A stretch of 64,000 nucleotides of DNA, taken from IMG/VR virus record IMGVR_UViG_3300018080_000131, positions 37,075 to 101,074 of that record, one strand, 5' to 3'. The DNA is from a virus. This document shows, in pieces, positions 10,287 to 29,669 of this stretch (position 1 is its first letter; each line of letters opens with the position of its first letter). The translations under genes were made by a program, and so were the position numbers. A model generated the notes under the pieces. It did not search any database. It was not told the DNA's origin and worked only from the letters and a program-made list of their open reading frames with translations.

Positions 10287-11201
10287 ATGAAAACAATAGA
10301 TGAGATTTTTGAAGGTGTTTGGGTTAGTGATGGTGAGTTTTTAATTCAGTGTCCTTATTGTAATGACCATCCTACTCATAATCATTGTTATGTGAATATC
10401 AAAAAAAGTGTTTTTAATTGTTTTTATTGTGGAGAATCAGGAACATTAAAAAAGCTGTTAAAGGATTTTGGTGATGATGAGAAGGTTAAGACGATAAGAA
10501 GAAGGCATGGGGTTAAAGAAAGACAAAAACATAAAGAAATATCAATTGATGAGTTTAATAGATTTAATCCAGTAACAGGAGCTAATGGTACTAATGATTT
10601 ATTAGCATTGAAATATCTTGAGAATAGAGGATTAAGACCATTTGAGATTAGGAATTATGATATTAGGTATGCTTCTTCAGGTAAGTATTTTGGAAGGGTG
10701 ATTATTCCTATTTATGAGGAAGGTGATTTGGTTTGTTTTATTGCAAGAAGTTTCTTAGATATGATTGAACCTAAATATTTATTTCCAAAGCATGGAGAAA
10801 CTAAATTAACTACAAATGAAGCATTATTTGGGTATGAGAAATCAAGAGATTATTGGTCAAGCAATCATGTTATTGTAGAAGGTGTTTTTGATGCTATAAA
10901 GATAAATCAAACAGATAATTTTAAAGGTATAGCTATTATGAGCAAGCATTTAAGTGAAGGTCAGAAATATAAGCTGTTGAAGCTGGAAGGAACTTTTTAT
11001 ATAATGCTAGATTCAGATGCTAAGTTAGATTCTTTGAAGGTTGCTGGAGAATTATCTAAGTATGGAAAAATTGTGAAGGTTGCGTTTATTAAAAGTAAAG
11101 ACCCAGGAGAAGCTAGTTTGAAGGAAATAAGAAAGGCTTTGAGACAAGCTGAGCCTTTTTCTTATGAACTAGAAATGAGAATAAAAATGGAGGATTGGTA
11201 A
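10287..11201 (+). CDS. DNA primase (zinc finger + TOPRIM)
   Basis: CPYC..CFYC zinc finger, YLENRG, GRVIIP, PKY, IVEGVFDA, MLDSDA, KDP. Confidence 0.88.
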   Translation: MKTIDEIFEGVWVSDGEFLIQCPYCNDHPTHNHCYVNIKKSVFNCFYCGESGTLKKLLKDFGDDEKVKTIRRRHGVKERQKHKEISIDEFNRFNPVTGANGTNDLLALKYLENRGLRPFEIRNYDIRYASSGKYFGRVIIPIYEEGDLVCFIARSFLDMIEPKYLFPKHGETKLTTNEALFGYEKSRDYWSSNHVIVEGVFDAIKINQTDNFKGIAIMSKHLSEGQKYKLLKLEGTFYIMLDSDAKLDSLKVAGELSKYGKIVKVAFIKSKDPGEASLKEIRKALRQAEPFSYELEMRIKMEDW

Positions 11202-11479
11202 GGCAGGTAAAAATGCTAAAAATAACAGTTGAGATTATTCCTTTTGGAATAAAAGATATGAAGAAAAGGCTTGGCGAGATATATATTACTAATGATGGTA
11301 CTGGAAATGAAGAAATAGGAAATTATAATTATACAATTAAAACTGAAAGAAGACAAGATGAGAAGATTGGTGATGAGTTAAAAGGGAGAGTAGAGAACTT
11401 CCAAAGAAGAAAGTGTAATTTTTGGAAGCTGTTGTATTTGATTTTGAAGGGAGTTTATGATGGGAGAGAAAAAATATAA
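11195..11479 (+). CDS. conserved phage hypothetical protein
   Basis: I.NDGTG...GNY pattern. Confidence 0.55.
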   Translation: MVRQVKMLKITVEIIPFGIKDMKKRLGEIYITNDGTGNEEIGNYNYTIKTERRQDEKIGDELKGRVENFQRRKCNFWKLLYLILKGVYDGREKI

Positions 11480-12934: not shown

Positions 12935-14491
12935 ATGGAAAATTTAATAGAGAAAAAACCAAGAAATATCATACAAGCTTTTGAAGAAGAGGAGTTTTTT
13001 GGTAAGTCTTTTCCAGGTAAGAAGAAAGGAAGCTGGGATAAGTGGAAAAGCTTCTTGAAAATTGTATATGGTATCAGATTAAACAAAAGGGACAGGGAAG
13101 TTTATGAGAGATGTACTGGTAGAAGCATTGATGATATTCCTAAAGGTGGTTTTGAAGAGTTTTATGGGATTGTAGGTAGAAGAGGTGGTAAAAGTACTAT
13201 TTCTTCATTTATTGCTTCTTATGAGGCTTTATTTGGTGGTTGGGAAAAAGTATAAGCTCCTGGTGAAACAGGAAGTGTGTTTATTGTTGCTCCTGATAAA
13301 AAGCAAGCTGGAATTATTTTCAAATATTGTAAAGCTATGATTGCTGATAATTTTAAAGATATGATTGTGAGAGATACTACAGAATTGATTAGCTTGAAAA
13401 ATGGAATTGATATTGTGATAATGCCAGCTAGAATGACAGGTTTGAGAGGTTTTTCAACTATTTGTGTTATTCTTGATGAAATTGCTTTTTTGAAAACAGA
13501 GGATTATGCTAATCCAGCAGATGAGATTATTACAGCATTAGAACCTTCTTTGAAGGCAAAAGCTAAGTTGATTGGGATTTCTACTCCTTATGGAAAATTT
13601 GGTTATTTCTATGATATGTTTAAAGAGCATTATGGAAAAAGAGGTTCTGAAATTTTAGTTTGGCAAGCTCCAACAACATATATGAATCCAAGGTATGATG
13701 TAAGTAAAATCAGAAGAGCTAAAAGAAGGGATTTGTCAAAGGCTACAGCAGAATATGAGGCTACATTTAGAGAAGATGTAAGTTCTTACATTTCAGAAGA
13801 TGAGCTTTTGGGGTTAACAGAATTTGGTATAAAAGAAAGGTTACCAGAAGAGGATATGCCTTATTATGCTTTTGTTGATGTTTCTGGTGCTAGGAAAGAT
13901 TCTTTTACTTTTGCAATTGCTCATGTTGAAGAGGATTTTGTAGTTTTAGATGTTATTTATGAAAAAGTTCCACCATATAATATTGAAAATCAGCAACAGA
14001 TTTGTGCTGATTATTTGAAGAAATTTGGAATTAGGCATATTGTTGGTGATAAATATGGTGGTGATTTTCCAGTTCAAGGATTTAAGAGGAAGGAGATTCA
14101 GTATTATCAAAGCCAAAATCCTAAGTCTGATTTATATCTTGATTTTCAGATAGTTTGTAATTTGAAAAAAGTGAAATTGCTTGATAATGAAAGAATGAGA
14201 AAGCAGTTTATTATTTTAGAAAGGAAAACAGATGCTTCAGGAAAAGATTCTGTAATTAAGCCAAGAAATACTCATGATGATGTTGCTAATTCAGTTGCAG
14301 GAGCAGTAGTAATGGCATATAGGAGTATTTCAACTAGACCTTCTGAGGAAGAGCTAAAAAGCAGGATGTTTAGGAAAGTGCATAAAAGAGGGTTGAATTA
14401 TGATGAGGAATGGGCTAATATTTTGAAAGAAGCTGAAAAAGAAATGGAAGAGCAGTTAGCTAGAAGAAAAAAAGGAGAAGGAGAAAAATGA
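12935..14491 (+). pseudogene. terL: terminase large subunit interrupted by an in-frame TAA at 13253-13255
   Basis: Walker A GRRGGKS in the 5' part; Walker B ILDEIAF, ISTP, nuclease FVDVSG and HDD in the 3' part; both parts in the same frame. Confidence 0.85.
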
Positions 14492-14715
14492 AAGGTTTGA
14501 TATATTACATAAACAAGATTTTAGGTAGAGTTCCAACAGAAACAGATAAGAGTTTTGCTAAAAAAGAGCTTGAGTATTTTATGAGAGGTAGAGGTGCTAC
14601 TCATAGGTTTGTAAGACCAGGAGAAAGATTCAGAAAGCCTTGGAAAAAAAAGAAAAAGCTTAAAGTTGGTGAATCTGAGAGAATTGGAAGATTTTACAAA
14701 TATGAGGAGAAATAA
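14488..14715 (+). CDS. basic hypothetical protein
   Basis: RBS GGAG; overlaps terL stop. Confidence 0.5.
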   Translation: MKGLIYYINKILGRVPTETDKSFAKKELEYFMRGRGATHRFVRPGERFRKPWKKKKKLKVGESERIGRFYKYEEK

Positions 14716-14984
14716 GAATATGGATAATATTGGAAAAGAAATTATTTATTTTGAAGAATGGGTAGATAAGAGAATAAGACATATTGAAAGAAAGGAAAAG
14801 AGGAAACTTTTTATTAAATATTTAAAATATTATCTTACTAAAATGGAAGAGGCTATGGAAAAAGATGATAAGGTTAAGGTTCTTTCATTACAAAGAAAGT
14901 TTAAAGAAGAAGATGTTGGTTTTTATTATGTTTTTAAAATGGCAAGTTATTTTGCAAATAAACTATTTGATGAGGAGTAATTTA

Positions 14985-15105
14985 TAGGCTGAAATATGAG
15001 TAAAATATACCTGTATAAGGCTATTAGAGCTATTCTAAGCCAAAAACTTTATAATACAAGTATGTTTGCATTAATGGAGTTTTAATAAGGCTTAAAAATG
15101 ATTTG
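14985..15105. repeat. ~115 bp phased intergenic element, copy 2
   Basis: Colinear with 9921-10040 and 27975-28093. Confidence 0.8.
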
Positions 15106-15119
15106 GAGGTGATTAAATA

Positions 15120-15248
15120 ATGGCTAAAAGAGGTGTTCCTAAAAGAGATGGTTCTGGAAGAGGAACTAGAGCAAATAGAGGAAGAGGTGGATGTTCTTCA
15201 ACTAAAGTTAGAGGACAGGGAAGAAGTGGAAACAGAGGAAGGAGATAA
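15120..15248 (+). CDS. small Gly/Arg-rich protein (MAKRGVPKRDGSGRG...)
   Basis: GGAGGTG RBS; 42 aa; absent from ORF track. Confidence 0.6.
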   Translation: MAKRGVPKRDGSGRGTRANRGRGGCSSTKVRGQGRSGNRGRR

Positions 15249-15518
15249 AATGAATATTTTTGAGCTTAAATGTTATTACTGTGGAAACATTAATAAAATA
15301 AAGTATCTGGGTAATGAAGAACCAAAGAAAGTAAAGTTTCAGTGTAGAGAATGTAAGAGAGATATAAAGTATGAGGATGAGGTTGCTAGAAATTTTAGGT
15401 TTTACTAATGCTAGTTGAATATTTAGAAGCTTTGGGTTTTATTGCTTTAATTTGGGTTCTTCTTTTTATTTGGGAAAGATTAGGAAGGAAGAAGAAGCTG
15501 AAATTGTAGTTTTTTGTC

Positions 15519-15989
15519 ATGAAACATAGAACCAGAATTGAAAGAAAAAACAGAAAAAGCAAGAGATATATGACCTTGCATAAAAGTGGTTGGTTGTCTC
15601 AAAAGGACTTATCACAATTTTTGAATATCAGCATATGGACAATAAGAAGATGGAGTGGGTTAAGATATTGGAATACTTGGGATATTCCAGAAGGTTTTCC
15701 CAAACCAGTTGCAAAAGATGGAGAATGGAGATGGAATCTGAAAGAGGTTTTGGTTTTTTGTGGATTTAAAAAAGAAGAGGATGAAATGAGCTATCATGAA
15801 TTAACAGAGATTGAAAAATTGCTTAAAACAAATGAGGTTGCTGAAATGCTAAGATGTACTCATTATTGGGTTAGAAAATTGGCAATAAAAGGTGATTTGG
15901 ATTATGTTAAGCTTGGTAACCAGTACAGATTTAGGTATAAAGATGTACTAGATTTATTGAATAAAAAAAGGAAAAATTGTAGGATATAG
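15519..15989 (+). CDS. tandem MerR/AlpA/excisionase-type HTH DNA-binding protein
   Basis: Two HTH_17-like units (LSQKDLSQFLNISIWTIRRW..FPKP; LLKTNEVAEMLR..VRKL..G.L..VKLGNQYRF). Confidence 0.75.
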   Translation: MKHRTRIERKNRKSKRYMTLHKSGWLSQKDLSQFLNISIWTIRRWSGLRYWNTWDIPEGFPKPVAKDGEWRWNLKEVLVFCGFKKEEDEMSYHELTEIEKLLKTNEVAEMLRCTHYWVRKLAIKGDLDYVKLGNQYRFRYKDVLDLLNKKRKNCRI

Positions 15990-16929
15990 GTGGTGAGAAA
16001 ATGAGCAAACATGCAGAATATTCTTTTACCAGAAAAGCTGTTTTGAAAAGGGATAAGAGGAATAAGAAAAGGAAGAAAAGAGGTAAGGGAAGTAAGCATG
16101 TAAGGAAAAGCAAGTAAAATGAACCAGTATATGAAAGAAGAGGAGCTTATAGAAGAGGCTTTGAAAAAATTGCATTTGTTAACTGGTGAAAAATGTCAGG
16201 AAAGGAAAGAAAAACAGGTTTTGAAAAAGTTGGTTGAAATAATAAAGAAAAAACAGATTAATCAATTGAAGAAAGATTTAAAAGGGGTAATAGACTATTT
16301 TACAGATAGGAGAGTAATATGAGTATTATGATATTAAACAATATTTTGTATAGGTATAGAGATTTTATTAAACACAATAACTTATCATATATGAAAAGCA
16401 GGTATAATTTTTCTGATGATTTTGATGAGTGGTGTAATAGAACAGAATAAAAATTAGGGGTATGGGTATAAAAGAGAAGATAAGGAAAATGAGGTTGGCT
16501 ATAATACCAGATATGCCTAATATAATAACAGTAGATGATATAATGTTGTATATACCTAATGGTTGTATAGAATCTGATATATGGGATTATGTGGATTGGG
16601 AAAGAGAGATAAAAGAAAATAGGGAGTAGGGTTGAAAAGAGAAGTAATGAAAATGCAGAGGATAGTATAGAAAGGAAACATACCTAAAATAGAGATATTT
16701 TTATAGGGTATGGGTATAAAAGAATGGTATATAGGAAAGAAAAAGGTAGTAGAAGGAAAGTAGATACATTGTATATACTTCATGAGGTGTCAAAAACTGC
16801 TCAATTTTTTGCAAGACAAAACCAAAACCAAGGCAAAGAAAAAAGAAGGCTTACTCCAGGGGTAGACCTCAGTTGCAAAGTTGTTGGCACAGGAGAGTAT
16901 GTTTTAGGTTATGAGGCTTTTTGAAGGGT

Positions 16930-16959
16930 ATTATACCACAAATGAGGGGTGTATGTCAA
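16930..16959 (-). promoter_or_regulatory. leftward sigma70 promoter
   Basis: Minus strand TTGACA-18-TATAAT with extended -10 TG. Confidence 0.65.
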
Positions 16960-17130
16960 GTAGGATGGTGCTGAAACAGGCTTGGGCTTCCAGAACAGCA
17001 GGGGTTTCTGATGAGCATGGTAGAATCTGTAAAAAACCAGCATATACCACAATATATAGGGGTATTGATGCTGTATATACTAGTCAAAAAAGTTAAGTTG
17101 CAGAAAATAAAAGAGATATGGGTAGAAAAA

Positions 17131-17158
17131 AGTTTACATAATAAAAGTTATAAGACAC
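17131..17158 (-). other. dif-like XerC/XerD recombination site
   Basis: Minus strand GTGTCTTATAA-CTTTTA-TTATGTAAACT (11-6-11 architecture, canonical XerD arm). Confidence 0.75.
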
Positions 17159-18550
17159 AGGTGGGGTATATGATGCAGGATTCTGGTAGTGAAAGTAAAG
17201 TTCAGGTGCAGTTGCAGGAACATTTTGGTATCAAAAGCCAGCAGAAGTTCTCAGGAGTTGGGGATTTTTTTCTTGGAATATGCAGAAGACAACAAGTACA
17301 CCAGTTATACAGTAACAGGGGTAGGATTCCTTGGAATTGAGAAAAAGGATTGTTTACAGTGAAATGTGGTACTATATAGATGAAAGGAGAGAATAATGAG
17401 TATTGTTTATGACCCTACAATAGAAGCCAAAGTGGTGCTTTGTCCTAAGTGTGAGGCTAATATGGAAGACTTGGAGTTTGAGATTGCTGGAGATGGTCTT
17501 TGGGAGTGGAAGTGTAATAAGTGTGGATATAGTTGGACAATGACAGAAGAGGAGATGAAGGAGTTGAGATGAAAGAAAAGGTTTACTGTTGCAATTGTAA
17601 GTATTTTTATGGGTTTACTTCTCCAAATAGCCAAAAGACTTGTTTGGCTAAGTGTTTTACCAGAAGTACTCCAATAGTTCCAAAAGAAATCTTTAATCAG
17701 GATGGTGAGTTGCTGGGGACAAGAAATCCAGAAGAGGTTAATAGAAATAATGATTGCCCAGATTATAAAAGGAAATGGTGGAAGGTTTGGGTATGAAAGA
17801 AAAAGAGATTATACTACAATTAATGGAGGCTTGTAATACTTTAATGGATGAGGTTGTAGGAAAGAAAGCTACTAGATGGGGTGTTGTCAATAAGGCTCTT
17901 GTTGATGGAAGTAAGTATATAAAGGAAATAGAAAAAAAAGAGATGATACAAAAAATAAAAAAATTGGGGTATATTGATGATTAGAAAACAGAAGAAAGCT
18001 TATAAGAAGCTAAAGAAACACTACAAAAAACATATTGAAAGCTGGGAAAAATGGTTAACACATATAGAGGAATACAGAATACCTTATTTTCAGGAAGAGC
18101 AGAGAAAGTATCATATACTGTTAAAGAATAAGAAAGAGATATTGGATTATTTAAGTGAGTATTATGGTTATTTAGCTGAATTGGAATACAAAAGAAAACA
18201 GATGGAAAAAGAAGAGGAAAGAAGAATCTCTTTTATAGGATTAAGATGAAAGAATATTTTAATTGTCTTAAATGTGGTTCTTTGTGTGAGGTTGTTTTCA
18301 AGGATAATGATGAGTATTCTGGAGAAGAGGTTTGTGAGAAATGTGGTGCTTCTCATGAGGTGTATTTAGTAACAGAATTGAAAGTATCTTTAAATGAAGA
18401 ATAGATAATTGTCAGAAATGAGGCTTCTCACTTCTGACAAAAAAGGTGATAAGTTATGGAAAAAATTGAGAAAATGAAAAAAACTTTGCTGTATAAAATG
18501 CTTGTTTATAACAAGTTAAAAGAAAAAAGAAAAAAATTTCAAAAAAAGAC

Positions 18551-18579
18551 TTGACAAATGATAAAAAATGTTTTATATT
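18551..18579 (+). promoter_or_regulatory. sigma70-type promoter, repeat copy 2 (drives ncRNA operon)
   Basis: TTGACA-17-TATATT. Confidence 0.85.
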
Positions 18580-18606
18580 GTGATTGTCTTCAGTTAGAAG
18601 ATGTAA

Positions 18607-18621
18607 GTTCTTTAACAATTT
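18607..18621 (+). promoter_or_regulatory. rrn-type boxA antitermination element
   Basis: GTTCTTTAACAATTT versus rrn leader GCTCTTTAACAATTT, ~25 nt after the predicted start site. Confidence 0.75.
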
Positions 18622-18626
18622 AATTG

Positions 18627-18883
18627 ATTGTCTCTTCTGAGAGAAGGGAGTTAATCCACAGTTCATCTTGAGCTTGGGAAAAGTTCCTAGAGGATGGAAG
18701 ATTCAACTAATCTGAGGATAGGTGTTGAAAACCTAGATGATTCACCTAGTTAGGAGTAGCTAACCTAATGATGATGGTGGTTGGGGTGTCCCCCCTGACA
18801 GTTGACCCTAGTTCTCCAAGGGTGTTCTTGTTACCAAGTGAGCTTAGTTGCAAGAGCTTGGTACTTCTCCCAGAAGAGACAAT
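18627..18883 (+). ncRNA. structured RNA unit 1 (degenerate tRNA-like core ~18639-18872)
   Basis: 20 bp closing stem 18627-18646/18864-18883; multiple internal hairpins; ends TTCTCCCA. Confidence 0.65.
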
Positions 18884-18889
18884 AAAATG

Positions 18890-19101
18890 TTTTCCTTCTA
18901 ATGGGAAGGTCAACTAGACAGAAGACTTACTCATTAGTGAAACAGGGAATTGATTAATGCTTTTAAGTAGGCATGGTCAGCATCTGAGTAGAACCATCTG
19001 TGGTAAGCAGAAAGACAAAAGGCTCTGTTGGCTGTCAGTTCTTTGTGAAGTATTAATGCTTCTTGCAGGTGGAATTCCTGCTCTTCCCATTAGAAGGAAA
19101 A
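18890..19101 (+). ncRNA. structured RNA unit 2 (expanded tRNA-like core 18903-19089)
   Basis: Acceptor GGGAAGG/TCTTCCC-A, T-arm GCAGG-TGGAATT-CCTGC, variable-arm-like hairpin, ~13 bp flanking stem extension. Confidence 0.7.
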
Positions 19102-19117
19102 ATAAAAAATTCTCCTT

Positions 19118-19327
19118 AGAGTTTTTTCTGGGAGAATAGCTTAAGAAAGCTGTAATGCATTTAATAGGATGCTGGTGAGATGAGATGGTTATACTAGTTG
19201 CCATTTTATCTTCTCAATTCCAGCACTATGACTATAGCATAGTTAGCATAATAACAGTTTAAAGCTCTGGTTCTTTGAATCAGGTAAATGTTGGTTATGA
19301 AATCCAACTTCTCCCAGAAAAAACTTT
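19118..19327 (+). ncRNA. structured RNA unit 3 (tRNA-like core 19130-19316 with ~120 nt D-loop insert)
   Basis: Acceptor GGGAGAA/TTCTCCC-A, TA, D-stem GCTT/AAGC, anticodon-like arm CTGGT-TCTTTGA-ATCAG, T-arm GTTGG/CCAAC. Confidence 0.75.
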
Positions 19328-19393
19328 GGTGAGTAAAGTATTGTATAACAATAACTTAGAAAAAAACTTTAAAAAAAAAATGAAAAAAAAGAC

Positions 19394-19422
19394 TTGACAA
19401 ACACATAAAAATGTTTTATATT
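19394..19422 (+). promoter_or_regulatory. sigma70-type early promoter, repeat copy 3
   Basis: TTGACA-17-TATATT. Confidence 0.85.
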
Positions 19423-19431
19423 ATAAGTATG

Positions 19432-19611
19432 ATGATAAACAAAGAAACAAGCAAAACAAAACAAAGCCTTCTTGATGAGCTTTCTATCATTAGAGAAGAT
19501 ATTAAAGATGTTCAGTTTTCTATCCAGAATGGCAACATTTCTGATGTTTCTATTCTTAAAGGTCTTCAGGAAGTTGAAACATCTCTCTTAAATCAAATAA
19601 AGGAGTTTTAA
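19432..19611 (+). CDS. small early protein, probably leaderless
   Basis: ATG at the predicted transcription start, no Shine-Dalgarno. Confidence 0.55.
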   Translation: MINKETSKTKQSLLDELSIIREDIKDVQFSIQNGNISDVSILKGLQEVETSLLNQIKEF

Positions 19612-19612
19612 G

Positions 19613-20098
19613 ATGACAATTAAGTTTCATAGGCACTCAGGTTTTTATGGTGATGGCAATTCCAGGTATTTCTGGGAAGACAGAGAGTTGGATTTGTCAA
19701 AAGGTGTCATGAAGATTCATACTGTGGTTTCCAAGTATGGTCAGTTGGCTAGTAATGGTAACTTTCAGGAAGATACTGAGGATGAGGAAATTCAGGCTAT
19801 TCCTTTTAATAAGGAAACAGAAGAGCAGATTTATGAGATTCTTCTTCCTCTTATTGAAACAAAAGAGAAGTATCCTCATCTTGTTAACTTCAGATTCTTT
19901 TCCTACAAACACAAATTGTTTGTTACTGGTAGGATGAATAAAGCTGTTAAGATTGCTGTTAAGAGTGGTAGTCATTATTATGGTACAGATTGCAGTAAAA
20001 ACATCTTTGTGCTTCAGAGAAAAGGGTTGGTTGTTACTACTTATTATGAAGATACCTTCAAACATTCCTTCTGGAAAATCAAAGTGGAGAAAATATAA
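19613..20098 (+). CDS. early hypothetical protein
   Basis: AAGGAG RBS; 161 aa. Confidence 0.6.
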   Translation: MTIKFHRHSGFYGDGNSRYFWEDRELDLSKGVMKIHTVVSKYGQLASNGNFQEDTEDEEIQAIPFNKETEEQIYEILLPLIETKEKYPHLVNFRFFSYKHKLFVTGRMNKAVKIAVKSGSHYYGTDCSKNIFVLQRKGLVVTTYYEDTFKHSFWKIKVEKI

Positions 20099-20133
20099 GT
20101 TGAAAAAAACTTTAAAAAAAATGAAAAAAAGAC

Positions 20134-20162
20134 TTGACAAATGACTAAAAAAGTGTTATATT
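20134..20162 (+). promoter_or_regulatory. sigma70-type early promoter, repeat copy 4
   Basis: TTGACA-17-TATATT. Confidence 0.85.
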
Positions 20163-20198
20163 ATAAGTAGAATGAGAAACAAAAAAGGAGAAACAAGG

Positions 20199-21011
20199 AT
20201 GAAACAAACAATTTATTACTTTGGTGAGAAACTTAGCTTCATGATTGAGACAGATTCTTCAGATGAGGCTCAGGCTCTTTTAGACTCTGAAAGAGCTAAA
20301 GGAAGAGCTTGTTGCTGTCTTCATGAAAATGGGAAACATCAGATTTATTCCCAGATTCCAGAAGAAGCAGTTAGGTTTCAGGTAGCCAACATTGACACTG
20401 AGGAAATTTATTTTGTCAGTGGTTGGGAAGAAGGTAGAGATAGTACTGACAAGTCAGCAATTCAGGAAGCAATCAAACTCAATGATACAATCACAATGGG
20501 TAAGGTGATTGTAACTCCAATTAGGTTTACTGATATTCTTGATGAACTGAATAAAGAGGCTCAGAAGGATGATTTACCTCTTGATGCTTCTAGGGAAGGC
20601 TCAGTGATGCATGGTATCCTAAAAGACTCTCAGAAGGCTTCTAATGAGCTTAAAGAGGTATTTGGTGATGTTATTAGTAAGTATACTGATGATGAGGCTG
20701 TAGATGATGGGCTTTTAGTTCCAGTTGAAGACCTTTTGCCAATTACTTATATGACAGCAGGTGTTTATGCAAAGTGTATTGAACCTTTTGTTTTAAAGGA
20801 TGTTATTACTGGTAGGACAATTAAGGGTACTTCTCCAAAAGCTTTGACAAAGAAGCTTATCACAAGAATCATTTCTGCTGTGAGTCTTCAGATAAGTGAT
20901 GGTTCTGCTCCTTCTGATGATTGGATGTATAAAGTTGATGCTTCAGGTTGGGAATTCTTTGTGGTTGAAAACCAGACAGGTTTTACAGTGATGTTTCCAG
21001 AGGAGTATTAA
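20199..21011 (+). CDS. early protein with DUF6573-like C-terminal domain
   Basis: FGDVISKYT..EAVDDG.LV...TVMFPEEY pattern. Confidence 0.55.
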   Translation: MKQTIYYFGEKLSFMIETDSSDEAQALLDSERAKGRACCCLHENGKHQIYSQIPEEAVRFQVANIDTEEIYFVSGWEEGRDSTDKSAIQEAIKLNDTITMGKVIVTPIRFTDILDELNKEAQKDDLPLDASREGSVMHGILKDSQKASNELKEVFGDVISKYTDDEAVDDGLLVPVEDLLPITYMTAGVYAKCIEPFVLKDVITGRTIKGTSPKALTKKLITRIISAVSLQISDGSAPSDDWMYKVDASGWEFFVVENQTGFTVMFPEEY

Positions 21012-21012
21012 G

Positions 21013-21444
21013 ATGACCTATAAAAAAGCACTTGGTTTGCTTATAGGAATTGCTAAGGATAATGGTATTAAGGTTTGTTTTCATGAGAGTGAATCTGAAA
21101 TAAGAGGTTATTGTATACCATCTGAGAAAAAAATAGTTCTTAATAAAAAGGCTATTTTAGACAAGCATGGAGAAAGGATGTTTTACTCAAATGTTACAGC
21201 AGTTTTGGCACATGAAATTGGTCATATTATGCTTCAGCATATTAGGCTTTGTGTAGATAGTTTTGATGAGATTATTGAGCAGGAAAAAGAGGCTTGGATG
21301 TATGCTAGTTTTCTTTTTAGTAGATTGGGTATAAGAATAACTAAAACATTTATAAATAGTATGGAAGAAGGTATTGAGAGTTATAGAATTGCTTATATGC
21401 AGAATATGGCTAAAGCATATAATAAATCAAAAGGAGAAAAGTGA
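21013..21444 (+). CDS. ImmA/IrrE-like metallopeptidase
   Basis: I.LN..., VLAHEIGH, E.EAW.YA. Confidence 0.7.
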   Translation: MTYKKALGLLIGIAKDNGIKVCFHESESEIRGYCIPSEKKIVLNKKAILDKHGERMFYSNVTAVLAHEIGHIMLQHIRLCVDSFDEIIEQEKEAWMYASFLFSRLGIRITKTFINSMEEGIESYRIAYMQNMAKAYNKSKGEK

Positions 21445-21658
21445 AATGAAAAAAACTACAATTTCTGATTTATTTAACAAGAAGGTTGAGTATGGTGGTG
21501 AGATTAGGACTTATGGAAGTGTCAGGAAGGAGCTTGAAGAAAAGGAGTTTCCATCACAATTGATTGACTATTATATGATGGGTTTACTTACTATGATGGA
21601 GAGGAAGGATTCTTCAAAGTAAAAGTGTATAACAAAAAAATTTGAATGAGGTGTTTTT

Positions 21659-21859
21659 ATGGGTAAGAGATATGTTAAGCATATGGAATGGAAGAGTAAG
21701 AGTTGGTTGGAGAAAGAGTATATAGAGAAACAAAAGAGTGTTAGAGAAATTGCTAAGGAATGTGGGGTTGCTGTTAGGACAATTGCTTATTGGCTAGAAA
21801 AGTTTGATATAAAAACAAGAGATATTTCTAAGAGTCTAGAGGTTAAATATAGGAGATAA
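21659..21859 (+). CDS. HTH DNA-binding protein
   Basis: SVREIAKECGVAVRTIAYWL. Confidence 0.75.
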   Translation: MGKRYVKHMEWKSKSWLEKEYIEKQKSVREIAKECGVAVRTIAYWLEKFDIKTRDISKSLEVKYRR

Positions 21860-22298
21860 TATTGTTATTTAAAAACAAGATGAAACAAAAATTAGGTAAA
21901 GATGATTATGGATTTGTGATTAATGGAGAAACTGGAAATTTGGAAATGTCTCTTCCTAAGAAGGAAGAGTATACAATAAAAGAATTAAGCATTGTTTTAG
22001 CTGGTCTTGAAAAATTTAAAAAAGCTTTCAAGATATTAGTGGAAAATGGAGAGTAAATAATGACAAAAAGAATATCAAGTAATATAACAAAATCAAGTAA
22101 AAAGAAACAGTGGACTTGTAAAAAATGTGGTAAAAAAGGTATTGTAGGTGAGTATACACAATCCTTAATCTGTGGTGATTGTGGAAATGTGATTAGTGAA
22201 TTTAAACAGGTTGAGATTATTACAGAACCTTGGATTGGGAAACAAGAAGAGATTATGGAAAGTGATAAATAAAATTACATTTTTTGAAGGAGATTGAA

Positions 22299-22922
22299 AT
22301 GCTAAGTAATTTTAAATTTACAGAACCTTTGGTATTTGATAATATTTATAATATTCCTGTTATAGAGAAGCAGGAGTTTAAGTTTGATGTTAATAAGGTT
22401 ATGGGTTTTAATTATTGTCTAAGTAAGAAGGAATTGATTGAGAATACAATTCATTTTTTCTTAGATGATTATCAGTTTGAGAGGGTTTGGAATAAACCTG
22501 AAAGATATTTGAAGATTCTGAAGGAGTTTAATGGTTGTTTTTCTCCAGATTTTTCAATATTTAGAGATGCTCCTTATCCAATTCAGCTATTTAATGTTTT
22601 TAGAAACAGAATAGTTGGGTTATATTGGCAAAGGAATGGTATTAATGTTATTCCTACAGTTGGTTGGGGTGATGTTGATACTTGGGATTTTTGCTTTGAA
22701 GGAGTAGAGGAAGGTTCTTGGGTTGCTATTTCAACAAGAGGAGCAATTCATAGAAATGAAGATAAAGAGTTGTTTAAAGAGGGTTATAATCAGATGTTAG
22801 AGGTTATTAAACCTGAGAAGATTATTGTCTATGGTAGGAAGTTGGAAGGTCTTGATGGAAACATTGAGTGGATTCCTTGGGACTATTATAGAACAGAAAA
22901 ATTAAATAGTGAGGAGAATTAA
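22299..22922 (+). CDS. DUF4417 domain protein
   Basis: IHFFLDDYQFERVWN.P, SPDFS, YWQ.NGINVIPTV.W, VYG. Confidence 0.85.
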   Translation: MLSNFKFTEPLVFDNIYNIPVIEKQEFKFDVNKVMGFNYCLSKKELIENTIHFFLDDYQFERVWNKPERYLKILKEFNGCFSPDFSIFRDAPYPIQLFNVFRNRIVGLYWQRNGINVIPTVGWGDVDTWDFCFEGVEEGSWVAISTRGAIHRNEDKELFKEGYNQMLEVIKPEKIIVYGRKLEGLDGNIEWIPWDYYRTEKLNSEEN

Positions 22923-22923
22923 T

Positions 22924-23190
22924 ATGGGAGGAAGAGGTTCAGGTTCAGGTGGTGGAGCAGGTGGTGGTGGAGGTGGTGCATCTCCAGAAACACCAGCACA
23001 AGCTCAGGCTATGATTGATTCAATTGATAGTAGAATGGATGGTTTGAGAACTAGGATTAGGTATCATATTGAGAGAGGTGCTACTTCTCAAGCTACTGCT
23101 TTACAGAGAAGATTAAGAAGGCTACAACAAAGAAAAAAAGCTTTACAAGCTTTAATGAAGAGGCTTCAAAAAGCTGGTGTTCCAACATAA
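22924..23190 (+). CDS. MGGRG-start Gly-rich/coiled-coil protein (DUF4417 partner)
   Basis: MGGRGSGSGGG N-terminus, GAGGAG RBS. Confidence 0.7.
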   Translation: MGGRGSGSGGGAGGGGGGASPETPAQAQAMIDSIDSRMDGLRTRIRYHIERGATSQATALQRRLRRLQQRKKALQALMKRLQKAGVPT

Positions 23191-23205
23191 TAATTAGGAG
23201 ATATA

Positions 23206-24756
23206 ATGGATTTTAAAGGATTTTTCTATAGGGTTTGGTATGATTGGTTGAATCTAAGAAAGAATGTATTCTGTCCTTTGGCAAAAAAGAATAATTGGAA
23301 ATGGTTATTTAATGTTTGTGATTGTCAGAGATATGAACCTAAATATATTTGGGTATGGGTATGTTCTGATTGTGGTAAGTTGACAGAAGAAGGAAAACCA
23401 AAAGCTATTTATAAAAAATTCCTTAAAGGAACAGAACCTACAGAGAAGTGTACTTGTGCAATTATACCACCAATAGAAAAAGTAGAAAGAACCATTTGTC
23501 TTGTTAGTGGATTGCTTGCTAGAGGTTTCTGTTTACATACAGAAGTGAGAGAATACAACAAAGGAACAGAACCTACAGAGAAGTGTGATGTTCATGATTT
23601 TGTAAAATCTAAAAGAGATGAAGAAAAATGTGCAGGTATGCTAGGTTTCTTTTTAAGCTTTATTAGACAAGCTTGGAATCCTAAAGACCAGATGAAAACT
23701 GTTGAGGAACACCAAGCTGTTTTTTCTGAGTTAGCAAGAAGAGGATATAAGTATGTTGATTGGTTTATGTGGTTATGTGATAATAAATATGAACATAAAT
23801 ATTTAAATGATAAGACTCCTTTTTATCAATATAAAAATGCTGTTGGGAAAAGGATGTTTGATTTAATGAAATGGGATGAAAGATTTTGGGAATTGTTTGA
23901 GATATTTATTAAACTACATAAACAGTTTAATCTTGTCCCTGTTCCTCAGATTCTTATGGCTAGATATTGTGATTATCCTTTTGAGAATAATAGAAATAAA
24001 GTTAGAGGTTTTTGGGATAAAACAGCTAGAGATGTTCAGTATGATTTGATTGATAAAACTGTTAGCATTGTTAAAGGAATTGTTGGAAAAGATTTTCTTG
24101 TGAAGTTTGTAAATGAACCTCAGCATGGTGGAAGTGATAGTAGGTTTCATACAATTGCTGAATGGCATCATGATATGTTTTGGCATGGTCTTTGCAAACA
24201 TTTTGATACTGGAGAAGAGGCTTTGAGTCATTTGGTCATTGATAATTCTGGTTCTGAAGCTGGTCAATTGTTGTTGGTTTGGCATCATGGTGGTGAAGAT
24301 GGTCAAAGGTGTCCTAAATGTGGTAAGCTTTTTAAAGATATATTTGGCTACAGTACTGAAGAATGGATGGGTAGGCTTAGAATTGGAGAACAGCACACTG
24401 TTAGTATTGTGGATGATTTGGAAGCTGGTCATAATTCTTTAAGAAAGTTTTTTGGTTCTGCTAATAGAAAGGTGAGATGGCATGAAGATGGTGGTGCAAG
24501 TGATTGTTCTAAAGCTCATGGTTACCATAATGGATATTGTTTTGCTAATGCTGAAGAGTATGGTAAAATGTGTGCTAAGGTATGGAAGATGCAAGCTGAA
24601 AGAGGAAGAGGAAAGATATGTTATATTTGTATATTTCCTGCTGAAACATTATTTTATATTGATAAGGTTTTCCTAGAAACTTACAGAGTAGATACTATTA
24701 ATTGGGACAGATTTGATGAAATGGTGAAAATGCATAAAAAATATCTTGGAGATTGA
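23206..24756 (+). CDS. Cys-repeat N-terminus plus glycoside-hydrolase-like (TIM barrel?) domain
   Basis: Two KGTEPTEKC repeats; FVNEP acid/base-like motif; aromatic-rich. Confidence 0.45.
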   Translation: MDFKGFFYRVWYDWLNLRKNVFCPLAKKNNWKWLFNVCDCQRYEPKYIWVWVCSDCGKLTEEGKPKAIYKKFLKGTEPTEKCTCAIIPPIEKVERTICLVSGLLARGFCLHTEVREYNKGTEPTEKCDVHDFVKSKRDEEKCAGMLGFFLSFIRQAWNPKDQMKTVEEHQAVFSELARRGYKYVDWFMWLCDNKYEHKYLNDKTPFYQYKNAVGKRMFDLMKWDERFWELFEIFIKLHKQFNLVPVPQILMARYCDYPFENNRNKVRGFWDKTARDVQYDLIDKTVSIVKGIVGKDFLVKFVNEPQHGGSDSRFHTIAEWHHDMFWHGLCKHFDTGEEALSHLVIDNSGSEAGQLLLVWHHGGEDGQRCPKCGKLFKDIFGYSTEEWMGRLRIGEQHTVSIVDDLEAGHNSLRKFFGSANRKVRWHEDGGASDCSKAHGYHNGYCFANAEEYGKMCAKVWKMQAERGRGKICYICIFPAETLFYIDKVFLETYRVDTINWDRFDEMVKMHKKYLGD

Positions 24757-24830
24757 AAAAAATTTTGATGTGTAAAGTATTGTATAATAATAACTTAGAA
24801 AAAAATTTAAAAAAAATGTTAAAAAAACAC

Positions 24831-24859
24831 TTGACAAACAAGAAAAAATGTTGTATATT
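24831..24859 (+). promoter_or_regulatory. sigma70-type early promoter, repeat copy 5
   Basis: TTGACA-17-TATATT. Confidence 0.85.
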
Positions 24860-24892
24860 ATAAGTACAATGAGAAACAAAGGAGAAACAAAG

Positions 24893-25198
24893 ATGACAGA
24901 AACAAAAGAAAGACCAGAGGTTAAAGCTGGTGATTTTGTCAATCCTGATGGTTGGGGAAAGTGGAATGGTGAAATACTTCAGGAAGATGATGGTTTCAAA
25001 GATTCTTCTTTTCCTGGTTGCCAGTTCAGGCTTCCTTCTAATACCTGTCCTGATTGTAAGTTTGCTGTTAATGTCAGAATAACAGGTAAGGAAAGATGGG
25101 ATAAAGGTTCTGGTTGGTTCAGGTGTGAAGTTGAGTTTGTTGGTGATGGAGAACCTTCAACATTCACCAGAGGCTGGCTTCATAAGAATGTTTGGTAA
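24893..25198 (+). CDS. early hypothetical protein
   Basis: AAGGAG RBS. Confidence 0.6.
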   Translation: MTETKERPEVKAGDFVNPDGWGKWNGEILQEDDGFKDSSFPGCQFRLPSNTCPDCKFAVNVRITGKERWDKGSGWFRCEVEFVGDGEPSTFTRGWLHKNVW

Positions 25199-25805
25199 AA
25201 AGGAGAGATAAAATGGCATTAGGAAGTAAGAAAAGAGATTATGTAACTTCAGCAAGATTGGTTGAAAAAAGGCTTGCTCTTCATTTTCAGTTTATGAATG
25301 AATATATTCAAAATGGAATGGAAAAAGATGAAGCAAGTAAGAAAGCTTTTAAGGATATTCAAGAAGGAAGGATAAAGTAATGGTTGGTTACATTAGTTGG
25401 AAATATAATAATGCATGTTTACCAGAAGAAGGCTATATTGAAGTTGTGATTATGACAAAGAAAGAGAAGATTAGTAACTTCTATAAAATTAAAAGATTTG
25501 AAGGTGATGATTTGAGAGATGGTAATATTGCTGTATTCTACAATAGATTAATTACTGGTTCTTTTTGGAGAAGTGGTCAAACTATTTTTTATACTGATAA
25601 TGTTCCTTGTAGAACTAATGTTGAAGAGTTAAAGAGTTATAAGGTTTGTGAGAATTGTATTCATCTTACACAAGGTTTCCACCAGATAAAGGGTAGAAAA
25701 ACTTATACTTTTGAGTGTGGTAGTTTTGAAAGTAAGAAGAAAGGAAAGAAGGTTAGTTTATCAGATACCTGTGAAAAGTTTTTTTCAAAAAAATGAAAAA
25801 AAGAC

Positions 25806-25834
25806 TTGACAAATAAAATAAAATGTGTTATATT
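25806..25834 (+). promoter_or_regulatory. sigma70-type early promoter, repeat copy 6
   Basis: TTGACA-17-TATATT. Confidence 0.85.
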
Positions 25835-25867
25835 ATAAGTAGAATGAGAAATAAAGGAGTAAAAAAG

Positions 25868-26251
25868 ATGAGTAGAGAAGAAAGTAATAGGCTTGAGAGG
25901 CTTATGAGTGGTTTGGAAGAAGTTACTGGTCATAGGGCTTCTATGAGTCAGAAGGAGCTTTGGAATCTTGCTCCTAAAGAGGCTAAAAGAACTGTTAGGA
26001 AAATGAGAAGACTTGAAAAAAAAGCTAAAAGGCTTCCTAGTAGGAGTTCTCATCCTGAGCTTCAGAGTGTTACTGTTCCTAGATTGGCTGATGGTCTTAT
26101 GAGATTGGTTGGTAATACTCTTAGGGTTGGAAATAAAGTTCTTGTTGGTGGAGAACCTGCTAGACAGCTTCATAAACATGGTGCTATGATGGAAAGTGAT
26201 TATCAGAATTATAAAGCTAAAGATTCTAAAAATAAATCAAGGCATTTGTAA
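25868..26251 (+). CDS. basic early hypothetical protein
   Basis: AAGGAG RBS. Confidence 0.6.
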   Translation: MSREESNRLERLMSGLEEVTGHRASMSQKELWNLAPKEAKRTVRKMRRLEKKAKRLPSRSSHPELQSVTVPRLADGLMRLVGNTLRVGNKVLVGGEPARQLHKHGAMMESDYQNYKAKDSKNKSRHL

Positions 26252-26499
26252 AAATGTGAGGTGATATGAATGAGTAAATATAATGTTAGGGTTTTAAGTT
26301 TTCTATATGATATTAATAAGCTTGATTCAGATATTGCTGGGTATCCTCATTATTTTACTGTAGAAGCAAAATCCAAAAAAGAAGCAGAAGAGAAAATGAG
26401 AAAGAAAATGGTTAAAAGATATGGAGAAAACTATTTTAAAATAACTGATGTTGAATTATATGATAAAGATTTTGCTTCTTATGATTAAAGGAGAATAAA

Positions 26500-27126
26500 A
26501 TGAGTGAGCTTCTAGAAAAATTCAAGAGTCTTTTAAAGAAAAGAGAAGGAATTGTACATGAAAGAAGCAAGCTTTATAAGTTGAAGTTTGATATGAGAGA
26601 TGCAGATTATCAAGAGAGATATGATAAAACTAAGTTCCAGCTAAGAAAGTTTGATGATAGAGAGAGAAAGATTAACAAGCTTCTTGATGGTCTTGCTAAA
26701 GAGCTTCCTGTTCAGGTTAGTAAGAATTGGAAGAAGTATGATTCAGTTTGGGAGTCAACATATTCTTCTCAAGGGTTTGGTTCTTATAAGTATGCTAAGG
26801 AAAGAGCAGAAAAAATAGCTGATGATATTAAAGTGAATGGTGTTCCAGTGAAGATAGAGATTGAAACAAAGAAGTTTGAAGGTTCTGGTTCTATATTTAG
26901 TAGTAGAAATTCTCATTCAACATTTAATATTTATGTGAAAGCTGATAAGGTAAATAGAGAGATTCTTAAAAGAAAACCTGGAGTTACTTTTAGGGAATGG
27001 ATTAGGTTATGCTGGAAAAGAGGTGTTAATCCAAGAGTATATAATCCTTTTCTTCCTCATGGTTTGGAAGAGAAGCTTGAGATTGATTATTTTGGAAATG
27101 ATTTAAGAAAAGGAGAAGTAAAATGA
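26500..27126 (+). CDS. hypothetical protein
   Basis: AAGGAG RBS; 208 aa. Confidence 0.6.
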   Translation: MSELLEKFKSLLKKREGIVHERSKLYKLKFDMRDADYQERYDKTKFQLRKFDDRERKINKLLDGLAKELPVQVSKNWKKYDSVWESTYSSQGFGSYKYAKERAEKIADDIKVNGVPVKIEIETKKFEGSGSIFSSRNSHSTFNIYVKADKVNREILKRKPGVTFREWIRLCWKRGVNPRVYNPFLPHGLEEKLEIDYFGNDLRKGEVK

Positions 27127-27323
27127 CAGTAAAAGAATTAATCAAAAGGCTTGAGGCTTTGGATGCTCCTGAAGCTTTAATTTTTGTTGATGTAATGAGA
27201 TTTGGTGATGTTGTGCAAAGTGGATTGCAAATTACTAGGGTAGAAAGAGAAGATAATTTTGAAATCTCCCATGTTGTGGAGTTTACAATAGAAAAGTAAT
27301 TTAAATTAATTAGGAGAAATAAA

Positions 27324-27983
27324 ATGAATGAAAATGAAAACAAAGAAGCCAAGGATTCTAGGGTTGGAGTGCTTAACAAGCATAGTTTGGATTTATTCTT
27401 ATTAGTTGATAAGAATAAGGCTATGAAAAGGGATGTTTTAAATGGTATTCATGTTACAGGTGAGTTTACAGAAGTTACTAATGGTCATTATGCTATGAGA
27501 ATTAGTAATAATCATATGCATCATGATGATTATCCAAATGGTCCAAATGGTGAAAAGATTAGTGATAAGAAGGAAGTTGATATTGTTGTTCCTGTGGAAG
27601 TTGCAAAAAAACTACAAAAGAATTTGCCAAAAATGAAGAGTCTTCCTATGATGGAAAATGCTGTTTTTGGTGAAAACACAAAAGAAGATAATTCAAATGT
27701 TGAAATTATCACTTATGATTTAGAGGCTTGGAATCCAGTTAACTTCAAACCTATTGAAGATAAGTTTCCTGATATGGATGCTGTCATTCCAAAGAAACAA
27801 GCTGAAATTGAAATTGGTTTTAATCCAGATTATATGATAAAGCTTTGTCAACAGTTTAAGAAGAATGGTGTTGATACAGTTAAGCTGTCTATTCATTCTC
27901 CAACAGAGGTTATGGTGTTGGATGGATGGAATTCTAGAACTGACCAGGAGATAAAAGCTTTGTTGATGCCAAAAAAGGTCTAG
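27324..27983 (+). CDS. DNA polymerase III beta-clamp-like protein (two-domain)
   Basis: LNGIH...TNGHYA, KFPD..VIP, IGFNPDY, ALLMP resemble DnaN domains 2-3. Confidence 0.7.
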   Translation: MNENENKEAKDSRVGVLNKHSLDLFLLVDKNKAMKRDVLNGIHVTGEFTEVTNGHYAMRISNNHMHHDDYPNGPNGEKISDKKEVDIVVPVEVAKKLQKNLPKMKSLPMMENAVFGENTKEDNSNVEIITYDLEAWNPVNFKPIEDKFPDMDAVIPKKQAEIEIGFNPDYMIKLCQQFKKNGVDTVKLSIHSPTEVMVLDGWNSRTDQEIKALLMPKKV

Positions 27984-28093
27984 AATATGGGTAAAATTTA
28001 TGCTTCTAAGGCTCTAAGAGGCTTTCTAAGCTAAAAACTATGTTGTATAAGTATATTTGCATTAGTGAGTAGATTGAGGAGCTTAAAATGGGT
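27975..28093. repeat. ~115 bp phased intergenic element, copy 3
   Basis: Colinear with copies at 9921 and 14985. Confidence 0.75.
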
Positions 28094-28311
28094 AATAGGA
28101 AGAGACAAAAAGAGAATTTGAAGAAGCTTCAGGAGTGGATGTTGGAAAAAGAAAAGGAAAATAAAGACAAAGAGATTAGAAAAATGAAGGATAAGAAACA
28201 TGAGGCTATTAGGAAAGAAAAGGAGAAAAAGAAAAATCTGAAAAGAGTTGACAAGATGAGAAAGAATGTTGATAGATTAAAAAGAAAAAAGGAGAGGGAG
28301 AAGATGAAGAA

Positions 28312-28737
28312 GTGAAAAAAATTTTATGTTTGTTGGCTATGTTGCTTTTTATTCCAGGGTGTATTATAATCAGTGAGGATTTTCAATATAGCAGATATGA
28401 GAGGTTAAGGTTTAGAAATCCTGTTAGAACAGTTTATTACAGTTATTGTGATTATAGTATTTGGAATCCTTATTGGTATACTAATTGGTATTATGCTAAT
28501 TGGTACAATTGGAGATATAATAGATACTGGAGAAGTTACAGAAATAATTATTATTGGTCAGGTACAACAAGAAGTTCTTCTAGTGATGTAATATCAAAAA
28601 GTAGTTTGAGAGATAGAAGTAAAAATAAAAGAGTGAGTGGGGTTGTTTCAAAAAGTAAGATTAAACAAAAGACCAGTAATAGTGGTTCTAAAAAAACAGT
28701 GAATAAAAGTAAGGGAAAGGTTAAAAAAAAGAAATAA
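28312..28737 (+). CDS. putative lipoprotein (Tyr/Trp-rich, basic tail)
   Basis: MKKILCLLAMLLFIPGC lipobox-like signal. Confidence 0.55.
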   Translation: MKKILCLLAMLLFIPGCIIISEDFQYSRYERLRFRNPVRTVYYSYCDYSIWNPYWYTNWYYANWYNWRYNRYWRSYRNNYYWSGTTRSSSSDVISKSSLRDRSKNKRVSGVVSKSKIKQKTSNSGSKKTVNKSKGKVKKKK

Positions 28738-28754
28738 GATAATAGGAGTAAAAA

Positions 28755-29668: not shown

Positions 29669-29669
29669 A

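Follow-up and report, generated by a model that had tools for sequence, protein, structure and literature searches.

A boxA-led operon of three stem-closed RNAs in a virus genome, probably a phage stable-RNA operon on the plan of bacterial rRNA operons

Introduction

A compact fragment of about 800 bp in a virus genome, with a promoter, an rrn-type boxA and three units closed by long helices, raises the question of what is made from it: tRNAs, other stable RNAs, the leader of an mRNA, or no RNA at all if the inverted repeats act as DNA. In a preliminary description, made from the letters of the sequence, it was read as an antiterminated operon of three oversized tRNA-like RNAs that belong to no known family. 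To our knowledge, phage stable RNAs with no function assigned have been known since T4 and T5, and none of them has been given a role. The locus is a clean case in which no tRNAs are intermixed, the leader is of the textbook rrn type and the three modules carry compensated helices, and the fragment can be cloned and tested.

The window analysed here spans 64,000 nucleotides, from base 37075 to base 101074, of a 101-kb record of virus DNA in IMG/VR, the completeness of which is estimated at 65%. Positions are those of the window.

Results

Genome and setting of the locus

All genes of the record were found on the + strand. The genome was found to be C-starved, with a GC content of 31% and only 9% C on the + strand. 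T4-like head genes were present (portal, prohead protease and gp23-type capsid protein), along with genes for a family A DNA polymerase, RecA, DnaB, primase, ribonucleotide reductase (RNR) and a sigma factor of the virus's own. The nearest relatives in any collection were distant, with at most 68% identity in TerL and at most 47% in the capsid protein, and were found mostly in sediment-type metagenomes.

The operon lies about 4 kb from the terminase gene. RNR, three shared genes and TerL were found to follow one another in the same order in one relative (L250), and the portal gene comes 1.4 kb after TerL there, whereas the TerL-portal interval of the present record is 16 kb long and contains small genes, five promoters of the family described below and the RNA operon. 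Another relative (L175) contained a shorter form of the TerL-portal module without the RNAs. Because the synteny of these two relatives differs at this interval, the operon is placed in a variable accessory module and not in the core genome.

An in-frame TAA was found within TerL. TAA is also the commonest ordinary stop (67 of the 109 long ORFs) and there is therefore no sign of recoding; the standard code fits with TAA as the main stop, and stop-codon recoding with a suppressor was rejected. The sole tRNA found by ARAGORN, a phage tRNA-Thr which scores 52.5 bits with the Rfam tRNA model, lies 13 kb from the operon.

Promoter, 5′ hairpin and boxA

The strong promoter and the rrn-type boxA of the preliminary description were both recovered (Table 1). 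Seven near-identical promoters of this family were found in the genome. Six of them were followed by a conserved mRNA leader (ATAAGTA..AATGAGAAA..GGAG..ATG) and then by a gene, and only at the copy at 18551 were a hairpin and boxA found in place of the mRNA leader. The hairpin stands in the position of the boxB of rrn leaders, and by analogy with these leaders (PMC10250234) it may have the same function.

The published boxA consensus is GYTCTTTAANA (Baniulyte et al., PMC5725501), and the sequence GTTCTTTAACA at 18607, which begins 28 nt after the -10 element, was found to match it exactly. The consensus is not rare, with four matches on both strands of the 64 kb against 1.07 expected, and the weight is therefore carried by position, context and extended sequence. 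Among the matches, the one at 18607 was the only one behind a promoter of this class, and the boxA 12-mer was found once in the 101-kb record. A stretch of 23 nt including boxA recurred unchanged in the rrn leader of one Psychromonas genome, in which it lies 259 nt before the 5′ end of 16S, and a 19-mer of the stretch was also found in several other gammaproteobacterial contigs, in one of which (L350) it lies between 16S and 23S.

The leader was found to be arranged as in rrn operons, with the consensus boxA after the promoter, the hairpin before boxA and a long helix just after it, the closing helix of unit 1 beginning 9 nt past boxA. No boxC sequence and no second boxA were found in the operon. 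No intrinsic terminator was found between unit 3 and the next promoter of the family, and the array could therefore belong to a longer transcript.

Table 1. Features of the RNA operon, with positions in the window.
Feature	Position	Strand	Details
Sigma-70-type promoter, TTGACA-17-TATATT	18551..18579	+	11/12 matches; probable start near 18586
5′-terminal hairpin, 5 bp with wobble pairs, 5-nt loop	18585..18603	+	sequence; paired in the MFE fold
rrn-type boxA, predicted NusB/NusE loading site	18607..18621	+	perfect match to GYTCTTTAANA
Unit 1, stem-closed RNA	18627..18883	+	arms 18627-18646 / 18864-18883; core 18639-18872 (234 nt)
Unit 2, stem-closed RNA	18890..19101	+	arms 18890-18909 / 19082-19101; core 18903-19089 (187 nt)
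Unit 2, T-like hairpin	19065-19081	+	predicted fold
Unit 3, stem-closed RNA	19116..19329	+	arms 19116-19136 / 19309-19329; core 19130-19316 (187 nt)
Unit 3, hairpin after U8-A9	19138-19151	+	predicted fold
Unit 3, T-like hairpin	19290-19308	+	predicted fold
Next promoter of the family, downstream limit of the RNA operon	19394..19422	+	promoter search

Three stem-closed units

Three units were found behind boxA, separated by spacers of only 6-14 nt. The closing stem of about 20 bp that had been described for each of them corresponds to inverted repeats of 23, 19 and 17 nt with 91, 100 and 100% complementarity in units 1, 2 and 3, respectively, the repeat arms being 217, 174 and 172 nt apart. 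As RNA helices the closing stems contained 19-20 pairs with 0-1 mismatch, the single A.C mismatch lying in unit 1, and showed pair probabilities of about 1.0. Their length and regularity are those expected of RNase III substrates (nearly perfect dsRNA of about 20 bp or more), and in a scan of the whole 101-kb record they formed the only cluster of long helices. The 3′ signature T[TC][CT]TCCCA was found to be common to all units (at 18865, 19082 and 19309), and both the signature and the core lengths agreed with the preliminary description.

When the helices of the three paralogs were aligned at G1:C72, 10 positions were found to contain compensatory changes on both sides, and a single mismatch was counted among about 58 pairs. 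The pairs U-1:A73, G1:C72, G3:C70 and A4:U69 were invariant, and the helices were found to extend 12 further pairs outside G1/A73. The unit interiors of the three paralogs did not align, and no recognisable common internal fold was found for units 2 and 3 by pairwise consensus folding. The apical region of unit 2 was found to be complementary to that of unit 3 at 12 of 13 nt, which is about what is expected by chance, and the match was discarded.

Folding, composition and coding potential

The units were found to contain no credible ORF, as had been noted; the ORFs in the stretch reached at most 60 aa on the + strand and at most 75 aa on the − strand, and several of them crossed unit boundaries. 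The MFE z-score of 18590-19340 was -8.3 on the + strand and -6.5 on the − strand, with minimum free energies of -256 and -213 kcal/mol, respectively. The + strand MFE fold contained 30 G.U pairs among its 243 pairs, which together with its greater stability argues for a +-strand RNA and against an element that acts as DNA. C made up 16% of the region, compared with 9% of the genome as a whole, and 82% of the C residues of the region were paired in the MFE fold; of all 200-nt stretches of the genome, the richest in C was found in unit 1. Compensatory changes, C enrichment and strand bias are taken as evidence, at the level of the sequence, for selection on the closing helices as RNA helices.

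Without the outer stems, the interior of unit 1 gave a z-score of -0.5, which is no better than shuffles, and the interiors of units 2 and 3 gave -3.3 and -3.9, respectively; the core of unit 2 reached -3.3 on the + strand against -1.0 on the − strand. As no homolog was found (see below), the internal folds are predictions from single sequences. A CsrA-type sponge was rejected, GGA and AGGA not being enriched.

How far the units resemble tRNAs

Units 2 and 3 were found to contain a 7-bp helix beginning at the conserved G1, followed by U8, a flush T-like hairpin of 5 bp and A73. The T-like loops were as described, with UGGAAUU in unit 2 and the 9-nt loop UUAUGAAAU in unit 3. Two of the five pairs of the T-like stem were changed in a compensatory manner between these units, and the G53:C61-, U54- and A58-like positions were kept. 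The T-loop sequence UUCRANY (TPsiC), a D-loop GG and a 7-nt anticodon loop with U33 were absent from units 2 and 3; the hairpins after U8 contained loops of 4-5 nt without GG, and the best anticodon-like loop carried C at position 33. In unit 1 the inner helix was 8 bp long and included an A.C mismatch, the hairpin measured 7-8 bp, and the unit is not tRNA-like. As the helices run past G1/A73, the putative acceptor boundary was set by sequence conservation.

Even with the cutoff relaxed to E<=10, whole-genome and short sub-searches gave no tRNA-clan match in the region, whereas T4 rnaC gave a weak tRNA-clan match of 17.5 bits in a comparable search (the gathering score of the Rfam tRNA model RF00005 is 29 bits). 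ARAGORN at default settings found no tRNA in the units. At 70-80% of the threshold and with introns allowed, it gave calls with inconsistent layouts, among them a reading of unit 3 at 80% as tRNA-Cys(ACA). In this reading the insert of 96 nt falls at position 28/29, outside the D-loop where the preliminary description had placed it, and the A-U stem is weak. Acceptor mimicry of tRNA was rejected for want of a match in the one candidate-host genome checked (Psychromonas).

The units had been described as tRNA-scaffolded. The acceptor-like helix, U8, the T-like hairpin and A73 of units 2 and 3 agree with this description, and TPsiC, the D-loop, the anticodon loop and the whole of unit 1 do not. 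The tRNA reading holds weakly, as a shell and in units 2 and 3 only, and the cloverleaf parts that had been assigned (D-stem, anticodon-like arm, variable arm and an insert in the D-loop) are predicted from single-sequence folds.

Known families and partner genes

No family of Rfam 15 was found to match the units, the only matches being chance-level ones to unrelated eukaryotic families; this and the default ARAGORN result are what the preliminary description had anticipated. Covariance models of GOLLD, ROOL, OLE, raiA and other large Rfam ncRNAs gave no match, and the same was true of Y_RNA and YrlA. ARAGORN was negative for tmRNA, also at the relaxed threshold. In the 101-kb record, which represents about 65% of the genome, no TROVE (Ro60) domain and no RVT_1 (reverse transcriptase) domain were found, nor were an RNA ligase, RtcB or a CCA-adding enzyme found when 85 further ORFs were scanned with Pfam. 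Readings as a retron, Y RNA, tmRNA, pRNA or rRNA fragment were rejected on the absence of a reverse transcriptase, of TROVE and of any Rfam or ARAGORN match. The claim that the units belong to no known family was upheld as regards Rfam and has to be qualified as regards their kind, for which the annotated stable RNAs of T4 and T5 are a precedent.

Searches for homologs

No homolog of the RNAs was found in GenBank phages by blastn, or in gammaproteobacterial genomes in sets of 42 and then 401. No related RNA was found at 160 loci of TerL relatives (1.76 Mb of metagenome and viral contigs) by blastn, nhmmer, a boxA search and a long-helix scan. Pattern scans of IMG/VR for the closure of unit 3 type and for the boxA 15-mer gave matches that were chance or non-homologous by blastn. 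The two neighbouring proteins, 279 and 161 aa long, were found to have no relatives. By these sequence searches, the RNA operon is an orphan.

Over 49 positions, 41 of them identical, an arm of unit 3 (19181-19229) was found to match the antisense of the 3′ end of dxs from one genome of the Psychromonadaceae. As 60 kb of other phage DNA gave matches of similar strength to the same genome (48.2 and 44.6 bits), the match is taken as chance, and an antisense action of unit 3 on a host gene was rejected.

Discussion

Proposed operon and mechanism

The locus is a real and well-defined feature, and its anatomy had been described largely correctly. In bacterial rrn operons, a boxB hairpin and boxA stand ahead of the 5′ strand of a helix formed by leader and trailer, which RNase III cleaves (PMC10250234). 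The antitermination complex keeps Rho from acting on the untranslated RNA and, as has been proposed, retains the leader strand until the trailer has been transcribed (PMC10250234). As the layout of the locus matches this plan, it is read as a stable-RNA operon that borrows the rrn machinery: probably, it is a phage operon built like a bacterial rRNA operon, antiterminated by Nus factors and cut by RNase III. The likeness comprises the order of promoter, 5′ hairpin, consensus boxA and long-range helix around a structured RNA, the absence of a translated ORF, helices long enough for RNase III and the 23-nt identity around boxA. The locus differs from rrn operons in that the enclosed RNAs are 187-234 nt long and match no rRNA, three helices stand in a row and the host of the arrangement is a phage.

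On this plan, host RNA polymerase would start at the early-type sigma-70 promoter, and the nascent RNA would present the 5′ hairpin followed by the rrn-type boxA. boxA would load NusB/NusE with NusA/NusG (and SuhB), by which the untranslated transcript would become Rho-resistant, and the complex may, as has been suggested for 16S rRNA, keep the 5′ strand close to the exit channel until its 3′ partner has come out. The three modules, which are 234, 187 and 187 nt long, would each fold inside a 19-20 bp helix of leader-trailer type, and RNase III would most likely cut these helices, yielding three discrete, end-protected RNAs of presumed stability. Units 2 and 3 would then expose a tRNA-like minihelix, with the 7-bp helix from G1, the flush 5-bp hairpin and A73, and could be matured further by RNase P, 3′ trimming and CCA addition. 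The RNAs would not decode. Our best guess at their role is that of accessory protein-binding RNAs made early in infection, serving as tRNA-shaped sponges or scaffolds.

A bolder version of this proposal, to which we give little credence, would have the phage turn the ribosome biogenesis of its host, with the rrn antitermination complex and RNase III, to the large-scale production of three non-decoding RNAs early in infection, two of them tRNA shells with a cargo of 100-140 nt which, after maturation by RNase P and CCA addition, would act as decoys or sponges against tRNA-targeting immunity or another tRNA-binding factor. If true, the locus would represent a counter-defence module that consists of RNA alone and is carried on a variable island of the genome.

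Alternative readings

The decoy idea can also be taken by itself. Units matured at G1/A73 by RNase P, trimming and CCA addition would titrate tRNA-targeting nucleases or tRNA-binding proteins, and as such it is a functional refinement of the operon reading and not a competitor of it. The function is speculation and we regard it as unlikely. It would fit the 7-bp helix with invariant G1:C72, U-1, U8 and A73 and the flush 5-bp hairpin of units 2 and 3, the T-like hairpin with its kept positions and its two covarying pairs out of five, the placement of the operon in a variable accessory module, and the existence of tRNA-like stable RNAs in T4 and T5. The tRNA-clan searches were negative even where T4 rnaC was detected, however, and the units lack TPsiC and the D-loop GG as well as a convincing anticodon loop; pairing of leader with trailer is complete across the site at which RNase P is supposed to cut, unit 1 is at odds with the idea, and no acceptor match to tRNA was found in the one candidate-host genome. 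The array might instead act in cis, as a long structured 5′ leader and processive-antitermination cassette for the genes from 19429 onward. No intrinsic terminator separates unit 3 from these genes, and one viral contig (L138) carries the same boxA stretch in an mRNA leader. We consider a cis-acting leader quite improbable, since the downstream genes have full-strength family promoters of their own at 19394 and 20134, antitermination has no need of three 19-20 bp helices kept by compensatory change, and the boxA 15-mer more often precedes stable-RNA clusters.

True tRNAs with large non-canonical introns or inserts, which would decode once spliced and might be tied to the in-frame TAA of TerL, are very unlikely. 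The relaxed ARAGORN reading of unit 3 and the TerL codon itself speak for them, but the calls lie below threshold with weak A-U 'anticodon stems' and unusual anticodons, none of them UUA, the default ARAGORN and Rfam tRNA searches were negative, and TAA is the commonest ordinary stop with no sign of recoding. We know of no bacterial splicing route that would fit inserts of 96-163 nt. As little is to be said for Y-RNA-like partners of a phage Ro60 (TROVE) protein: the units are stem-closed and have some tRNA-like features, but a search of the 101 kb, about 65% of the genome, gave no TROVE domain, and Y_RNA and YrlA gave no match, and this reading too is given very little weight. The least probable reading is an element of the DNA, such as cruciforms, an origin or a packaging site. 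Inverted repeats are symmetric in DNA and the terminase gene is 4 kb away, yet a promoter and boxA lie directly upstream, the 30 G.U pairs become A.C on the other strand, the + fold is much more stable, and the C residues that are enriched here are paired, as an RNA would require.

Comparison with known systems

The closest known kind is that of the stable RNAs of T4 (rnaC and rnaD) and T5 (RNA1, RNA2, RNA2H and RNAX), from which the present variant differs in its large units, its long sealing helices, its boxA lead and the absence of tRNA. T4 rnaC (species 1, 139 nt) and rnaD (species 2, 119 nt) are likewise phage non-decoding stable RNAs with function unassigned, and rnaC resembles the units in that its two ends form an acceptor-like helix whose 3′ strand directly adjoins a hairpin. 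Unlike the units, both lie inside a tRNA cluster, are half the size and contain no long leader-trailer helices, and rnaC has a canonical T-arm and a weak match to the tRNA clan; neither of the two shares sequence similarity with the units. In T5, RNA1 and RNA2 are annotated as 'tRNA-like stable RNA with unknown functions', and RNA1, RNA2, RNA2H and RNAX are stable RNAs from early promoters. RNA2H (172 nt) has a multi-branched fold closed by end pairing, like the units, and RNAX (719 nt) is about as long as the whole array. The T5 RNAs differ in lying among 20 or more tRNA genes, in having shorter closing helices and in that no boxA is noted for them; RNA1 and RNA2 contain canonical T-arms, and none of the T5 RNAs shares sequence similarity with the units. 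The tRNA-like RNAs of T4 and T5 were found to carry GGUUCGAAUCC-type arms, whereas the units have no such arms and stand outside a tRNA cluster. YrlA and Y RNAs (PMC4201824) resemble the units as stem-closed ncRNAs with a tRNA-like module that occur in phages, but YrlA bears this module distally, away from its closing stem (PMC4201824).

The preliminary description had taken boxA as a mark of stable-RNA operons, and in other phage contigs boxA was indeed found to mark clusters of stable RNAs. The boxA 15-mer was found to precede clusters of tRNAs or unfamilied RNAs in four viral contigs (L126, L164, L142 and L161). Contig L126 was found to contain a promoter, a hairpin and boxA, followed by tRNA-Glu, an unfamilied RNA of about 320 nt and tRNA-Cys; part of the RNA between the two tRNAs is a module closed by a helix of about 20 bp, like the units. 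In L164, boxA is followed by 13 tRNAs, and L142 contained tRNA-Leu, boxA and an unfamilied stretch of about 400 nt, followed by tRNAs. A further contig (L135) contained a promoter and boxA, followed by an unfamilied stretch of about 550 nt and a terminator. No Rfam family was found in the unfamilied parts of L126, L142 and L135, and the unfamilied RNAs of the boxA-led contigs showed no sequence similarity to the units. The boxA-led clusters of these other uncultured phages hold canonical tRNAs, whereas the present operon has none. Taken together with them, the locus suggests a wide use by phages of the rRNA-type antitermination of their hosts for ncRNA operons.

Putative accessory island and early promoters

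The terminase large subunit (TerL) gene and the portal gene were found to be separated by 16 kb in the window, whereas the distance between them is 1.4 kb in the relative L250. The intervening module looks like a variable accessory island. Seven near-identical promoters of the form AAAAAAGAC-TTGACAAA..TATATT were found in the genome, five of which lie inside this module. A conserved leader, ATAAGTA(C/G)AATGAGAAA..GGAG..ATG, was present downstream of six of the seven, and promoter and leader together look like an early-promoter and leader cassette of the phage.

Coordinates of the features discussed
Feature	Location	Remarks
TerL gene	window 12935-14491	in-frame TAA at 13253-13255
TerL to portal module, 16 kb	window 14491-30560	small genes, promoters, DUF4417 nuclease, RNA operon
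Seven promoters	window -27304, 2282, 18551, 19394, 20134, 24831, 25806	
Ribonucleotide reductase gene	window 7470-9155	without the insertion suggested for L250
Inverted repeat, 19 bp	window 11148-11166 / 11257-11275	G+C-containing; arms 90 nt apart
ORF, 32 aa	window 18456-18554	good Shine-Dalgarno sequence AAGGTGA
boxA-led cluster, L126	218-540	- strand
boxA-led cluster, L142	2228-2611	
boxA-led cluster, L135	2130-2690	

boxA stretch and RNA clusters

The boxA-containing stretch at 18599-18621 was found to be identical over 23 nt to the rrn leader of Psychromonas sp. PT13 (L343), and a 19-mer from it was also present in rrn leaders or spacers of other gammaproteobacteria. Because of these matches, a marine gammaproteobacterial host is weakly hinted at. 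One Psychromonadaceae genome (G012:C1:2724705-2724752) was found to match 19181-19229, an arm inside unit 3 of the RNA operon, at 41 of 49 positions, the matched sequence being antisense to the 3′ end of dxs. Matches about as strong were obtained when other phage DNA was searched as a control, so the dxs match is probably due to chance.

In other uncultured phages, boxA-led clusters were found to contain tRNAs intermingled with structured RNAs of 300-550 nt. No Rfam family was matched by the structured RNAs of the L126, L142 and L135 clusters, and the L126 cluster contained one module with a closing helix of about 20 bp.

Other features of the genome

All genes of the whole record were found on one strand, an extreme asymmetry; this strand contained 9% C and 22% G, with a GC skew of about 0.3-0.6 along the whole record. 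In TerL, a single in-frame TAA separates the Walker A part from the remainder of the protein; TerL of the relatives is intact (500-560 aa). No sign of genome-wide stop recoding was found in the phage genome, and the TAA could be a sequencing error, the mark of a pseudogene or a site of read-through. The ribonucleotide reductase gene of L250 (3611-6217) was matched as two pieces with about 940 nt between them, which suggests that an intein, intron or homing endonuclease is inserted in it.

The 19-bp inverted repeat covers the 3′ end of the ORF at 10287-11201 and the sequence just downstream, and could represent either a terminator or a structured element. The 32-aa ORF lies between an upstream hairpin (18409-18440) and the promoter at 18551, the -35 element of which it overlaps.
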